From a phage: a stretch of 64,000 nt of DNA. The notes under the pieces were generated by a model, which worked only from the letters and a program-made list of their open reading frames with translations, made no database searches and was not told where the DNA came from. How positions within the stretch are numbered: position 1 is the first letter of the stretch; the number at the start of each line of letters is the position of its first letter. The position numbers and the translations under genes are program-made. The stretch lies in the sequence record PV730300.1. The stretch is one strand, 5' to 3'. Positions 6,820-11,220 of this stretch are shown here, piece by piece.

Positions 6820-7302
6820 ATGTCACAAGAACAAGATAACACAATTCAAAAATATGCTCGACCAGAAGAAGTAGTTGAGATTCCGTTAGATGGAAACAGA
6901 TCTGTTACTTTCCGTATTATGAAGTGGAGTCCATCTAAAGTGTTTGACAGGATTCCAGAATTGGGTAGTGTTCTGGTTGTTCCTATGACTATGTATAGCA
7001 CAGCAACAATGTCCGCAGACGAAGACCTTGAGTCACGTATTGCTATGGCACTGATCCAACTTTTTGCGGGTTTGGAAGAAAAGAATTTAACTGTCTTTTT
7101 GCGTAAAATTTTAGATGAGGTTTATACTCAAGACGGTTATAACGTTGCAGAAAATTTTGATGAATTATTTATGGCTCACCCAGAACTAGTGTTAGATCTT
7201 ACTGCTAAAGTTCTGGAGGTAAACTACGGCCCTTTTTTCAAACGAGGTTTCGGAAAACTGTTCACACAGCTTCAGGCGATGACGAGTTTAGCAGCAAATT
7301 AA
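6820..7302 (+). CDS. Tail assembly chaperone (gpG-like)
   Basis: 160 aa acidic ORF upstream of the tape measure region; contains slippery heptamer near its 3' end with an open -1 frame continuing to 7568. Confidence 0.55.
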   Translation: MSQEQDNTIQKYARPEEVVEIPLDGNRSVTFRIMKWSPSKVFDRIPELGSVLVVPMTMYSTATMSADEDLESRIAMALIQLFAGLEEKNLTVFLRKILDEVYTQDGYNVAENFDELFMAHPELVLDLTAKVLEVNYGPFFKRGFGKLFTQLQAMTSLAAN

Positions 7303-7568
7303 CACCTGCGATTGAACATGCTATCGACACAGCAACGAAAACCCTTACTTTGAAGTGGTATGAGGTTATTCTTTGCAAAGTCGTTAAAGATACCTCGGAA
7401 ACACTGAAAACATTGGATAACTACGGTGTAGATTATCTTTTAAAACTATATGAGTATTTAACATACGAAGAGTATGTTGAAGCCATGTATGTTAAAGACA
7501 CTTCAATAAAGAGAAAACATCAAAACCAAACAAATAAAATGTCAGATTTGTTTAAGAAACTTGTTTGA
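6820..7568 (+). CDS. Tail assembly chaperone G-T fusion product via -1 frameshift at 7233-7239
   Basis: Predicted fusion of about 250 aa (G frame to 7239, then -1 frame to 7568); conserved position immediately upstream of tape measure gene. Confidence 0.45.
7233..7239 (+). other. Programmed -1 ribosomal frameshift slippery site (T TTT TTC)
   Basis: Zero-frame codons CCT TTT TTC (7231-7239) give heptamer U UUU UUC; the -1 frame is open from 7209 to a stop at 7566-7568. Confidence 0.5.
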
Positions 7569-7593
7569 CTTTAAAACGTCACGGTGGTATACT
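7565..7593 (+). promoter_or_regulatory. Sigma70-like promoter candidate (TTGACT-N17-TATACT) upstream of endonuclease-like ORF
   Basis: -35 TTGACT 7565-7570, 17-nt spacer, -10 TATACT 7588-7593; followed by GGAGG SD (7610-7614) and ATG 7621. Confidence 0.45.
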
Positions 7594-7620
7594 TCTTTTA
7601 TTGAATAGAGGAGGAACATC

Positions 7621-8937
7621 ATGCGTGGCGTTTTAAATATTATAGGTCAAGACCCAAACAATCCAGACAAAATTCTGGTTACATGCTCTATCTGTTCAGA
7701 AGATAAAGAACTTTATCCTCAACCTTTCAGCATGTTCAAAAGTAACTTTGGTAGGCAAACACCTTGTGGTTGCTCAAAATGTCCAAAACTAAGTGAAGAT
7801 CAAGCCTACATTGTAGCAAAGAGAGCTACAGAAGCTTTAGGATACACTTTTTTAGGTTGGAGTAAAGAATACACAGGCTCAAGTTCTACAAAAATCCGTT
7901 GTGTTTGTCCTGAACATGGGGAATGGAACACTGGTATAATTTCAACGATTCGGAAGGGTGTGGGTTGTCCAAAGTGTGTAGATCCTAGGAAAAGAAAAGA
8001 TTTAGTAAAAGCTGAAGATTTCTTGGCAACAGGCTTCTTTGAAGATGGGACTACTTTTACCAAATCTGAAAGAAAAGATAAAAATGGTTGGAGTCCTTAT
8101 TGGTTTGTTACCTGCCCTACATGTTCAAATGATAAGTTTGTAAAAGCTGGACTTTGCTCTGGTATCTTTGAAGGCATGAAGTCTAATCTTTTGAAGGGTG
8201 CTAAACCTTGTCGTTGTTCTTCAAGGTATGTATACACTGAAGAGCAATATATTTTACGAATTAACACTGAAACACCTTATAGCTTTATTCGTTGGATTGG
8301 GAAGTTTAAAGGTAATCGCTCAAAAGTTGTAGTTTTTTGCGAAGAACATGGCGGTGAGATAGAGATGACTGTTTTTGGTTTGTTATCGGGAAACCGTTGT
8401 ATTACTTGTCACGGACACAAACCGAAACCAGAGACTGACATGAAAGAACAATTGAAAAAGGTTTGTGAGGAACGTGGATACACTTTTGTAAAGCTTATTG
8501 ATTACAAATCAAATAAGAGTTCTTTTCAATACTCTTGCAAAACCCACGGCATCCAACAAATATCAATCACAAACTTTATACACGGTGAACAAGGTTGTCC
8601 AGAATGTAGAGGTAAAAATCAGACCTATGCTTATATTCACCTGGTGGAAGATGAGGGTCTTGGTATTATTGGTCTTAAATTTGGAATAACAAAAAATCCA
8701 AGAATAAGAATAAGGCAACAGAATCGACTTGCTAAATATAAACTACGCAAGTTTAAGTTATATAGATTTGAAACTGTGGCAGCTTGTCGCACCGCAGAGA
8801 AAGAAGTGAAAGACGTTTTACCTTGCGGAGTTTTCTCCCAACAAGACATTCCAGACGGGTGGACAGAGACAACTTATATCTACAACCTGGAAAACATTAT
8901 GAAAATCTTTGAAGATAATGGAGGAATACTTTGTTAG
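7621..8937 (+). CDS. Homing-endonuclease-like protein: five tandem zinc-ribbon modules plus C-terminal T5orf172 (GIY-YIG-like) domain
   Basis: Repeated Cys-pair modules (TCSICS...TPCGCSKCPK; IRCVCPEHG...GVGCPKCV; FVTCPTCS...PCRCS; VVFCEEHG...RCITCHG; YSCKTHG...GCPECRG); C-terminal YAYIHLVEDEGLGIIGLKFGITKNPRIRIRQQN matches the T5orf172 pattern as I recall it; strong SD; lies just upstream of a group I intron core. Confidence 0.6.
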   Translation: MRGVLNIIGQDPNNPDKILVTCSICSEDKELYPQPFSMFKSNFGRQTPCGCSKCPKLSEDQAYIVAKRATEALGYTFLGWSKEYTGSSSTKIRCVCPEHGEWNTGIISTIRKGVGCPKCVDPRKRKDLVKAEDFLATGFFEDGTTFTKSERKDKNGWSPYWFVTCPTCSNDKFVKAGLCSGIFEGMKSNLLKGAKPCRCSSRYVYTEEQYILRINTETPYSFIRWIGKFKGNRSKVVVFCEEHGGEIEMTVFGLLSGNRCITCHGHKPKPETDMKEQLKKVCEERGYTFVKLIDYKSNKSSFQYSCKTHGIQQISITNFIHGEQGCPECRGKNQTYAYIHLVEDEGLGIIGLKFGITKNPRIRIRQQNRLAKYKLRKFKLYRFETVAACRTAEKEVKDVLPCGVFSQQDIPDGWTETTYIYNLENIMKIFEDNGGILC

Positions 8938-8989
8938 AAATTAACGCCTTAACTTAGGGGCTAATGTGTAGTGATACACATTATCAACT

Positions 8990-9250
8990 TTGTGAATTGC
9001 TGGGACACCCTTAGAGCCACACTACCACTGCGAATCGAAAGATGAAGCCACGGTTTGAAAAGTGTGTGGATTGGGTAATCAGCAGCCAAGCTCCGTTTAG
9101 GAGAAGGTTCAACGACTATCCCGTAAGGGAGTAGGATCAAGTGGTCCGAAGCGCAAAGCGTCTCATGTAGATGAAGATATAGTCTAATCTGTAGGGAAAC
9201 TTACAGCAGCGAAAGCGGGGAAGAATTAACGAATCTTCCCGAATACAATG
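8990..9250 (+). ncRNA. Group I intron catalytic core (P3-P9)
   Basis: Recognisable conserved elements: P-like aattgctgggaca (8996-9008), Q-like aatcagcagcc (9077-9087), R-like gttcaacgactatc (9107-9120), S-like aagatatagtct (9174-9185); gactat/atagtc give 6-bp P7; GNRA-loop hairpins at 8964-8981 (GTGA) and 9189-9206 (GAAA); no long ORF. Confidence 0.7.
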
Positions 9251-9264
9251 CAAAAATTAGTAAC

Positions 9265-11220
9265 GTGGTTACGTTTAAGGTGGACAAGAACAGTCTCAAG
9301 GAAGCAAAAGATGCCGTGTTGAGTGTTCAGAAGTTTGCAAATAAAATGCAACCCACTATGAACATGACCAAGTTTAGACAACAAATGAAAGAGATTGAGC
9401 GTGAACTTAAGAAAGCTCAAACTCAAAGTCAAAAACCTATGCGAGCACCTACTCCCGCTGGAGCGGGTGCTCCTGTAGGTGGATCTGGCAGACCTAGAAC
9501 TCCTAAAACCCCGCAAGGAAGAGAAGAAGAAAAAGCTCGTAAAGCGGCTGAACGCGAAGCTAAAGCAGCAGCACGTAGGGAAGATTTAGGTAATCTTCGT
9601 TTGCAGAACTTTAACTACCGAGCAAAAGCATTTAGTAAAGCCAGTCCTGGCGCTATGCAAGAAGCTAGAGACGTTATGGGTAAAGCTGTAGAGCAATATA
9701 AGAAGGGTGAAATAACTCTTCAACGTATGAACCAAGCTCTTGCTCACCAGTTAGATGCTTTACGCAGATCTCATCGTGAAAAGAATGCTGAAATAGAAGA
9801 CGAGGTTCGCGGTCGTCGCCGTATTCGTAGAGAGCTAGAAGCAGAAGCTAAAATGCGTATACGTATGCGAAACCGTGAACTTAGAGATATAGAACGCAAC
9901 CGTAAGCGTGAATTAGCTCAGCAAAAACGTGATCGTGATCGTCGATATGGACAATTAAAAGAAGGTGCAGCAGGTCTTAATCCACGCATGATTGCATCCT
10001 CTTTGATAGGTGCTGGACTGTTTGCAGGTGGTTCTGTAGTTGGTAACACTTTGATGAATACTAACGAAAGAATTAAAATGGTTAGTCGCGGTGCTGAAAA
10101 CGTCCAAACGAATGCTAACTCTATTTTAACAATGACCGCATGGGGTGAACAAAACGGTGTAGACTCGGCAAATATCATTAAAGCAATAGATAACATTAAA
10201 GACGTTCGTGAACGTCTAGGTAATACCATGATGAACACCAAATGGAACGCAAAAGAAGGGAAATGGAAAGGTGGTGATAACGGTATTACTGATATTATGA
10301 ATGCTTTTGGTTGGAACCCCGATCAAATAAAACATTTGCAAAATGACCCGTTAGCTTTTATCCAAGCCACTGTTAATGAAGGCGAACGTCGAGGCATGAA
10401 CTCTGCTCAAATCGGGCGACTTCTTGAAAACCTTGGTGATGACCTTATGCACTACCAACGTATGTTTAGTAAAAACGGCGAAGGGTATAACGAAGTATTG
10501 AAAATGCTTCAAAGAACAGGTGCAACATTAACTCAAGAACAAATAGATGCTTCTAAAGAGTTTACTCGTTTTGCTGCAACAGTTCAGCTTGTAGGTCAAG
10601 GTATGCAGAACCATTTCCTGGAAGGTTTTGTAAAAGCTTTACCTAAAGATGATTCTTGGTTGGATAATGTTAAAGTGCTAGATCAGTTCGCCAAAGATTT
10701 AGGTGAAGAACTTGGTAAAACAACAGTTCAACTTGGTGGTTTTGCTAAAGAATTGGGAGATGGTTTCGGATCTTTTACCAATTGGCTTAAAGAAACATTC
10801 CCCGATACCTTCGGAGACAACACAGATCCTAATAAATCTATGGCACAAAAAGCATATGAGGCAACGCAAAGTGGAGACAGTAACCCTGTAGCAGATTGGT
10901 TGTACAATTTAACAGGTATTGATACACAAGATATTGGTCGTATGTGGAGAGGAGAGCAAACAAGGACACGTGCTTTTGGATTTGGTAATCCTCTTGAGGA
11001 TTTACGTGAATCAGCCTATACACCTAACGTAAGTTTGGCTCGTAATCAACCTGTTGTTGAGAATACGGTAGCAATACCAAGTGATCTTATCAAAGTTACG
11101 ATCAGCCCTTCTTCCGAGTTTGGAAATATTCTTGATGCAAGAATTCAAAACAGCGGAAATAGCATTTTCCAACGTTTGTCTCTTTCAACTCTAAGTGGAC
11201 AATCTAACACTGGTGGTTAA
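9265..11220 (+). CDS. Tail tape measure protein (probable 3' exon; true 5' end unresolved)
   Basis: 651 aa, charged helical N-terminal region, follows the chaperone frameshift pair; listed GTG start has no SD and the frame opens only at 9175 inside the intron core. Confidence 0.6.
   Translation: MVTFKVDKNSLKEAKDAVLSVQKFANKMQPTMNMTKFRQQMKEIERELKKAQTQSQKPMRAPTPAGAGAPVGGSGRPRTPKTPQGREEEKARKAAEREAKAAARREDLGNLRLQNFNYRAKAFSKASPGAMQEARDVMGKAVEQYKKGEITLQRMNQALAHQLDALRRSHREKNAEIEDEVRGRRRIRRELEAEAKMRIRMRNRELRDIERNRKRELAQQKRDRDRRYGQLKEGAAGLNPRMIASSLIGAGLFAGGSVVGNTLMNTNERIKMVSRGAENVQTNANSILTMTAWGEQNGVDSANIIKAIDNIKDVRERLGNTMMNTKWNAKEGKWKGGDNGITDIMNAFGWNPDQIKHLQNDPLAFIQATVNEGERRGMNSAQIGRLLENLGDDLMHYQRMFSKNGEGYNEVLKMLQRTGATLTQEQIDASKEFTRFAATVQLVGQGMQNHFLEGFVKALPKDDSWLDNVKVLDQFAKDLGEELGKTTVQLGGFAKELGDGFGSFTNWLKETFPDTFGDNTDPNKSMAQKAYEATQSGDSNPVADWLYNLTGIDTQDIGRMWRGEQTRTRAFGFGNPLEDLRESAYTPNVSLARNQPVVENTVAIPSDLIKVTISPSSEFGNILDARIQNSGNSIFQRLSLSTLSGQSNTGG

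Follow-up and report, generated by a model that had tools for sequence, protein, structure and literature searches.

The window analysed here is a stretch of 64,000 nucleotides (nt) of phage DNA (sequence record PV730300.1), to which all coordinates refer unless another locus is named; the features described below lie on its + strand. Over a 3-kb region it is 99% identical to Escherichia phage nepoznato, and the window belongs to Phapecoctavirus. The gene for the tape-measure protein (TMP) is separated from the tail assembly chaperone genes by an open reading frame (ORF; 7621..8937) that starts with ATG, encodes 438 amino acids (aa) and appears to be a free-standing homing endonuclease gene (HEG). 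Just downstream, the TMP gene is interrupted by a group I intron without an ORF (8950..9250, 301 nt; Rfam RF00028). A first-pass annotation, made by a model from the letters alone, had read the ORF as an endonuclease with its own promoter and had associated it with an intron.

The HEG protein falls into phrog_681 'endonuclease' (PHROGs, 1e-89). Its N-terminal part (7621..8622) is made up of five CapR-type zinc modules, a predicted DNA-binding region. The full protein matches PF21817, the CapR homology domain, in five stretches (156.1 bits, E 2.6e-46, Pfam), and a weak match to DUF723 (Pfam) is also present. The five cysteine-pair modules of the first-pass annotation were borne out, as every segment scanned alone exceeded the Pfam cut-off of 24.2 bits for PF21817: module 1 (aa 1-57, 7621-7791) with 39.9 bits, module 2 (aa 58-126, 7792-7998) with 41.4 bits, module 3 (aa 127-203, 7999-8229) with 56.1 bits, module 4 (aa 204-269, 8230-8427) with 30.7 bits and module 5 (aa 270-334, 8428-8622) with 39.3 bits. 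By eye, the cysteine pattern is CxxC...CxC in modules 1 and 3 and C-x2-H...CxxC in modules 2, 4 and 5. The cysteine pairs are conserved among homologs, and zinc and DNA binding are predicted here by analogy. The AF2 model listed for the zinc modules has a mean pLDDT of 89.9, and an NCBIfam search returned nothing meaningful. The dN/dS ratio of the gene is 0.05 against nepoznato (10 synonymous and 2 non-synonymous changes) and approximately 0.13 against a more diverged relative (locus L003, see below), and the gene evolves under purifying selection.

The C-terminal part of the protein (aa 335-438; 8623..8934) carries a T5orf172-like nuclease domain of the GIY-YIG superfamily. Its match to PF10544 (T5orf172) lies below the Pfam gathering score of 20 bits, both in the full protein (17.0 bits, E 0.0085) and for the isolated domain (19.3 bits, E 0.0016). 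When residues 321-438 were compared with 1.84 billion representatives, 562 relatives were found, and in nearly all of the 150 listed the domain is C-terminal. Among 44 domain homologs a T5orf172 match was obtained for 17 and a MUG113 match for 16 (E <= 0.01), MUG113 presumably being a member of the same Pfam clan as T5orf172. The motif residues are Y338, K353-x-G355, R363, E393 and E416; across sets of 23 and 44 homologs K353, G355, R363, E393 and E416 are invariant or nearly so and Y338 is nearly invariant. By analogy, they would fit the GIY-YIG pattern, with the Tyr in strand 1, K-x-G in strand 2, the Arg in helix 1 and the Glu in helix 2; this assignment of catalytic roles follows the T5orf172 family (PMC10448857) and general knowledge. 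In the domain's AF2 model (pLDDT 94.2) the elements follow in the order strand-strand-helix-strand-helix-helix, as in a GIY-YIG fold with its three-stranded sheet between helices, and the C-terminal family profile gave no relevant match among PDB sequences. Because of the motif conservation in homologs, the family matches and the modelled fold, we accept the C-terminus as a probable divergent GIY-YIG-superfamily domain of the T5orf172 type that narrowly misses strict Pfam membership. Thus, of the profile searches that the first-pass annotation had proposed, the one for zinc modules succeeded above its cut-off; the one for the nuclease fell narrowly under the threshold and is overridden by fold, motif and family evidence, so that the proposed T5orf172/GIY-YIG-like C-terminus stands.

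The intron was detected by an RF00028 match at 8938-9206 (92.9 bits, E 7.7e-24; gathering score 50 bits). Its P1 helix is formed by 8946-8950 paired with 8957-8961, with a U8949-G8958 wobble at the 5' splice site, which is predicted after U8949; the 3' splice site is predicted after the terminal G9250. When the three lineages that carry the intron were folded together with RNAalifold, pairing was preserved by compensatory changes on both sides in 23 of 92 predicted pairs. At 301 nt the intron is far too short for an endonuclease gene, and its + strand contains no complete ORF of 40 aa or more. The exon borders and the insertion site were defined by comparison with the intron-less relative ESCO5, a check that the first-pass annotation had suggested. 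The annotated TMP of ESCO5 begins TTG TTA GAA ATT AAC GCC TCC AAA ATT AGT AAC GTG and reads ...TTGTTAGAAATTAACGCCT|CCAAAATTAGT across the site, whereas the window carries these first 19 nt at 8931-8949 (TMP exon 1, the TTG start plus 16 nt: TTG TTA GAA ATT AAC GCC T), then the intron, then CAAAAATTAGT from 9251. From 9251, exon 2 (9251..11220) reads CAAAAATTAGTAACGTG...; it falls into PHROG 16051, annotated as 'tail length tape measure protein' (E 0). The intron splits TMP codon 7, and the predicted spliced junction is ...AACGCCU|CAAAAAUUAG, or GCCU|CAAAA around the splice point. Joining 8931-8949 to 9251-11220 gives an ORF of 1989 nt, the length of the ESCO5 TMP gene, and the predicted spliced N-terminus MLEINASKISNVVTFKVDK is that of the ESCO5 TMP translation. 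Removal of the predicted intron would thus restore an intact TMP gene; this exon joining and the Rfam score both support the first-pass view that the ORF is associated with a TMP group I intron.

In the RefSeq record of nepoznato (NC_052658.1) the HEG is called 'endonuclease', and neither the intron nor the 19-nt first exon is annotated; the TMP coding sequence starts there at an internal GTG, 16 codons short (L001 3981-5921; 141320-143260, equal to window 9280-11220). Annotations of the nepoznato type therefore give a TMP that is about 16 codons too short, its true TTG start lying inside the end of the HEG ORF and its expression needing splicing. No description of a TMP intron in Phapecoctavirus was found among the papers searched.

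HEG, TMP start and splice site are tightly packed. The HEG stop (TAG 8935-8937) is built from TMP codons 2-3 and lies 12 nt before the 5' splice site, and the TMP Shine-Dalgarno sequence GGAGGA (8920..8925) is situated within the last HEG codons (AAT GGA GGA ATA, N-G-G-I), as it is inside the HEG end of three related loci (L003, L011 and L012). The first-pass annotation had let the ORF end 59 nt before the intron P element; this distance does not hold, as P1 begins at 8946. In the P1 loop an in-frame UAG (8955-8957, TTA ACT TAG) stops translation of unspliced RNA from the TMP start; the three lineages with an intron all retain this stop, which would hold ribosomes off the ribozyme core. Homologous endonuclease genes at other loci, in phi92 (L014 3109-3122) and DU_PP_I (L015 3148-3161), abut the next gene with zero spacer and have its Shine-Dalgarno sequence in their last codons, and a Shine-Dalgarno sequence in the HEG end is a recurring way for these genes to avoid polar effects. 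The conserved C-terminal Gly-Gly codons were considered as a general Shine-Dalgarno sequence of the next gene and rejected, as phi92 gp222 and Pectobacterium DU_PP_I use a separate tail. Two further features of the intron borders were observed. Exon 2 begins with CA in all three intron-bearing lineages and with CC in ESCO5; A9252 may improve a weak P10 pairing (U8955-A9252) or may be a co-converted or immunity base. The 7-mer ATTAACG of TMP exon 1 (8940-8946) recurs at 9225-9231 in the last intron hairpin loop (P9.2), probably by coincidence, as the copies do not co-vary in L003 or L012.

Among related phages the two elements are polymorphic, being present in some and absent from others at one exact position. 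Of about 65 records sharing at least 95% identity, nepoznato alone carries the 1.6-kb block of HEG and intron found in the window; in about 60 other phapecoctavirus records the flanks alone align (99% identical, 44% query coverage, two pieces). The HEG sits in the spacer that separates the upstream ORF (stop 7566-7568) from the TMP start at 8931, both neighbours are intact, and alignment with HEG-less relatives shows that the DNA replaced by the HEG ORF is intergenic and not coding. The left flanks of the window and ESCO5 are identical from 7530 to 7566. The HEG protein also occurs, in an identical layout, on seven contigs of several samples; in a tblastn comparison these copies are 99.8% identical to that of the window. 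Three more diverged loci carry relatives of the gene. L003 encodes a HEG protein (P0002) of 68% aa identity and has a 301-nt intron at the same site (90% nt identity) with flanking genes of 73-84% identity; L012 encodes one of 45% aa identity (P0003) and has an intron at the same site (Rfam, 90.5 bits); L011 encodes one of 47% aa identity with 308 aa and three modules (P0004), and has no intron, its uninterrupted TMP gene overlapping the HEG end. The IMG/VR locus L258 has neither element; it is 97.7% identical to the L003 left flank and is without a 1.69-kb block, so that L003 and L258 form a second, independent presence/absence case. Both elements are absent in all 16 IMG/VR relatives (16/16, L258 included) that were found via the chaperone protein.

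Upstream of the HEG a sigma70-like promoter (7565..7593) is predicted, with a -35 element TTGACT (7565-7570), a 17-nt spacer, TG at 7585-7586 and a -10 element TATACT (7588-7593), that is 10/12 consensus matches with a TG extended -10; the TGA stop 7566-7568 of the upstream ORF overlaps the -35 element. The number of promoter-like sites in the region is not above that of shuffles. A Shine-Dalgarno sequence GGAGG (7610-7614) is found 6 nt before the ATG at 7621. The promoter (TTGACT-N17-TATACT) and the Shine-Dalgarno sequence thus stand where the first-pass annotation had placed them. HEG-less ESCO5 has TTTAAT...CATACT at the promoter position, and equivalent promoters stand at the same relative position, with different spacers, in L003 (TTGACA-17-TATTAT) and L011 (TTGACA-17-TAAAAT), both with 11/12 matches. 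A further promoter-like site was noticed within the HEG ORF (7911-7940, TGAACA-18-TATAAT, TG, 10/12 matches).

The promoter overlaps a predicted RNA hairpin (7577..7630), in which the promoter spacer and -10 element pair with the HEG Shine-Dalgarno sequence and AUG. This segment folds with a dG of -21.2 kcal/mol (z -5.24), and 0/200 shuffles were as stable. Analogous hairpins of different sequence were found in L003 (-22.4 kcal/mol, z -4.5) and L011 (-23.0 kcal/mol, z -5.0), again with no shuffle as stable, so that the promoter and the predicted hairpin hiding the ribosome-binding site are shared by three of the four lineages. RNA from the predicted transcript start (about 7600), folded over 7600-7640, reaches only -3 kcal/mol (z 0.39). 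According to these folds the hairpin can only form on transcripts begun upstream of the HEG's own promoter. The promoter is of host type and presumably early, inside a late tail operon, and a plausible benefit of the hairpin is that no ribosomes would terminate 9 nt from P1 on the late transcript, which needs splicing.

Taken together, we interpret the locus as a free-standing CapR x5/T5orf172 HEG paired with the adjacent ORF-less TMP group I intron in collaborative homing, and we put the probability of this reading at roughly 70%. The collaborative-homing arrangement was reportedly described by Zeng et al. (2009) and by Bonocora and Shub (2009). In a mixed infection the HEG would be transcribed early from its own sigma70-like promoter, with a transcript start inside the hairpin; on read-through mRNA of the tail operon the hairpin would hide the ribosome-binding site, and the nuclease would be made only from its own transcript. 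The zinc modules would recognise an extended DNA site at the conserved start of the TMP gene, and the nuclease would cut or nick alleles with neither HEG nor intron in a relative infecting the same cell. Repair by recombination with the genome that bears the HEG would then copy the HEG and the adjacent intron together, which would amount to collaborative or trans homing. The carrier genome would be spared, its site being interrupted by the HEG insertion and/or the intron.

Several observations bear on the putative target. The TMP start, (T/G)TGTTAGAnAT(T/A)AA, is conserved in nucleotides across most lineages examined, distant ones included; an exception is L012, which has an extra codon after the GTG start of its TMP. 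A conserved gene start is the kind of site that homing endonucleases favour. Within the first 248 nt of the spliced TMP the window differs from ESCO5 at one position only, position 21, the second base of exon 2. Between the TMP genes of L003 and L258, 6/41 differences fall at nt 12-27, around the insertion point at nt 19/20, and the next is at nt 90. Such a cluster is compatible with co-converted exon sequence from the donor as well as with a target in L258 that resists the enzyme.

Five points weigh against this interpretation. First, the shorter three-module HEG of L011 is inserted at the same site without any intron, and the intron is therefore not needed for persistence of the HEG there. 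Second, the HEGs of the window and L003 are about as diverged as their flanks (71% against 73-84% nucleotide identity), which fits long residence as well as recent homing. Third, an intron-only allele was not found among the loci examined, which does not establish its absence. An exact-pattern scan for the exon 1-intron junction gave 0 matches in IMG/VR; in JGI metagenomes the pattern occurs at at least 120 loci, and among the matches listed none has the HEG and one has part of the intron core, so that the JGI matches are apparently due to chance. Fourth, no promoter or hairpin was detected in L012, for which 93 nt upstream were available to scan. Fifth, cleavage, splicing, transcription, target site, cut position and immunity are inferred from sequence.

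The strongest competitor is that the two elements are independent neighbours, the HEG homing alone to the chaperone-TMP spacer or the TMP start and an unrelated intron lying in its co-conversion tract, without being part of the recognition site or protecting the carrier genome. The uninterrupted TMP gene beside the L011 HEG speaks for this, and so do the wider relationships of the intron. A conserved 19-mer of the intron core is common to more than 120 unrelated phage introns, and no relative of the HEG was found near related intron cores among the 120 IMG/VR loci listed. The closest intron relatives outside the locus are those of Litunavirus phages, where, with approximately 78% identity in the core, they separate fragments of RNA polymerase subunits; in Pseudomonas phage phPLST (PV539788.1; L013 2501-2721) a different annotated endonuclease ORF starts within the last matched core bases, so that the intron lineage would appear to associate with unrelated HEGs. 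On the other hand, HEG and intron occur together, 12 nt apart, in three diverged lineages, no allele with the intron alone was seen, and the substitutions that distinguish L003 from L258, which has no HEG, are clustered right at the point of intron insertion. We therefore regard independent neighbours as unlikely.

A more far-reaching version of collaborative homing would be that the locus preserves successive Bonocora-Shub stages in the birth of a mobile intron, the intron having been recruited into the HEG recognition site as an immunity device and the promoter and hairpin protecting splicing. The states seen at the locus are neither element (ESCO5, L258 and others), the HEG only (L011) and the HEG with an ORF-less intron 12 nt away (window, L003 and L012). 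We offer this scenario tentatively and consider it possible but rather doubtful.

That the protein has been domesticated and binds DNA without acting as a nuclease, perhaps repressing in the manner of CapR or regulating the tail genes, is very improbable. CapR of PLE, a homolog of the zinc modules, does repress transcription (PMC8096241), I-TevI also acts as an autorepressor (PMC2988022), and the Pfam nuclease match is below threshold. CapR, however, has no nuclease domain, whereas here the domain is kept, with motif residues invariant in 44 homologs and a confidently modelled GIY-YIG-like fold, and the gene is dispensable, being absent from most relatives, contrary to a core regulatory role. 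Furthermore, no significant similarity between the promoter region and the TMP start points to an operator. The promoter region as an operator or a homing-site copy, in the manner of I-TevI, was rejected, as its local alignment was not better than shuffles in three lineages; the best promoter/TMP-start alignment (99/2000 shuffles) is only the shared 9-mer GAGGAACAT.

That the endonuclease is intron-encoded, its ORF forming part of P1 or P2 and thus placed 5' of the catalytic core, was the view of the first-pass annotation and is suggested by the ORF ending immediately before the Rfam intron match, but it can be practically discarded. The TMP Shine-Dalgarno sequence, start codon and 19 coding nt stand between the ORF body and the 5' splice site, collinear with intron-less relatives; P1, with its U-G wobble at 8946-8961, is downstream of the ORF; and the ORF replaces intergenic DNA and occurs in L011 without an intron. 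With the ORF end at 8937, the 5' splice site after 8949 and TMP exon 1 between, the exon alignment already refutes this view, and since the ORF lies in the spacer and TMP exon 1 precedes the splice site, the HEG is free-standing. Equally remote is a weapon against other phages or satellites, in which the T5orf172 nuclease would serve mainly to destroy the DNA of competitors, like Odn of ICP1 acting against PLE. Conflicts between phages and satellites have recruited T5orf172 nucleases (PMC10448857), but a precise, recurrent insertion site by an essential gene with presence/absence polymorphism is a homing signature, and no competitor target is evident.

Some observations on the surrounding genes were made in addition. 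The reading frame of a 72-aa ORF (7350..7568; phrog_16039), -1 with respect to the chaperone gene (6820..7302), is open as far back as 7209 and overlaps the last approximately 90 nt of that gene. It resembles the G/GT-type frameshift extension that usually lies upstream of tape-measure genes; a slippery site was not identified there. The large terminase gene of nepoznato (L136 3553-6597; NC_052658.1) is annotated as two pieces with an HNH endonuclease gene between them, and no Rfam group I intron was found at this split terminase locus at the gathering score. Matches to nepoznato further indicated second candidate intron-like and HEG-like places in its genome. Mismatches between the window and nepoznato crowd at 10078-10400 in the middle of the TMP gene (about 70 of 124 in 6 kb), which suggests a mosaic or recombinant segment.

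The phages concerned are easily grown E. coli phages and provide a natural donor/recipient pair, nepoznato with the block and ESCO5 or anhysbys without it, suited to asking whether a T5orf172 endonuclease homes and targets the intron insertion site. Moreover, the co-existing states of neither element, HEG only and HEG with intron bear on the origin of composite mobile introns.

HEGs with CapR/DUF723/DUF4379 repeats and a T5orf172 domain, free-standing by essential genes, have been described (Barth, Dunham and Seed 2023, PMC10448857), and DNA binding has been shown for the zinc finger of CapR (Netter et al. 2021, PMC8096241). In ICP1 a T5orf172 HEG lies beside the short first exon of a spliced terminase gene, an arrangement related to collaborative homing; TMP genes are often interrupted, and homing of the ICP1 members of the family is not experimentally verified (all PMC10448857). 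The gene described here resembles the ICP1 HEGs in its N-terminal array of CapR/DUF723-type modules ('beads on a string') with the T5orf172 domain behind it at the C-terminus, in its free-standing position by essential structural genes and in its patchy occurrence among close relatives; as at the ICP1 terminase locus, a T5orf172 HEG adjoins a short first exon with an ORF-less intron downstream. It differs in its host group (Phapecoctavirus, E. coli), in the tape measure as target gene, in its identity of approximately 30-39% to the nearest annotated phage homologs, in a divergent T5orf172 domain just below the Pfam cut-off and in a HEG stop that overlaps the TMP start 12 nt from the splice site.

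Collaborative and trans homing have been reviewed (PMC3984707, PMC2988022). Examples are F-CphI with the psbA intron of cyanophage S-PM2 and the T3/T7-like DNA polymerase intron with its neighbouring HEG (PMC3984707), as well as T4 mobE with the nrdB intron (Wilson and Edgell 2009, PMC2790892). As in these systems, a free-standing HEG adjoins and co-occurs with a gene that contains a group I intron with no ORF (or a defunct one). Unlike F-CphI (Endo VII-like) and MobE (HNH), the nuclease is of the GIY-YIG superfamily and T5orf172 type; cleavage at the insertion site was shown for those systems and is only inferred here, and here the HEG-only and neither-element states are found at the same locus in related phages.

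Control by promoter and hairpin is known for I-TevI, I-TevII, I-TevIII, segB and mobE (PMC2988022). The HEG shares with I-TevI the modular combination of a nuclease with a zinc-containing DNA-binding region and the proximal promoter with a hairpin that hides the ribosome-binding site (PMC2988022). I-TevI is intron-encoded, with an N-terminal catalytic domain, one zinc finger and a late promoter, whereas here the gene is free-standing and has a C-terminal catalytic domain, five zinc modules and a sigma70-type, presumably early promoter in a late operon. The first-pass annotation was right that the domain order is the reverse of I-TevI; this order is not unusual, being standard in the CapR/T5orf172 family (PMC10448857, PMC8096241). 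The architecture and the arrangement are thus already published, and our findings on them are confirmatory and not surprising; what is new is the host, the target gene and the tight packing of the HEG, the TMP start codon and the splice site.

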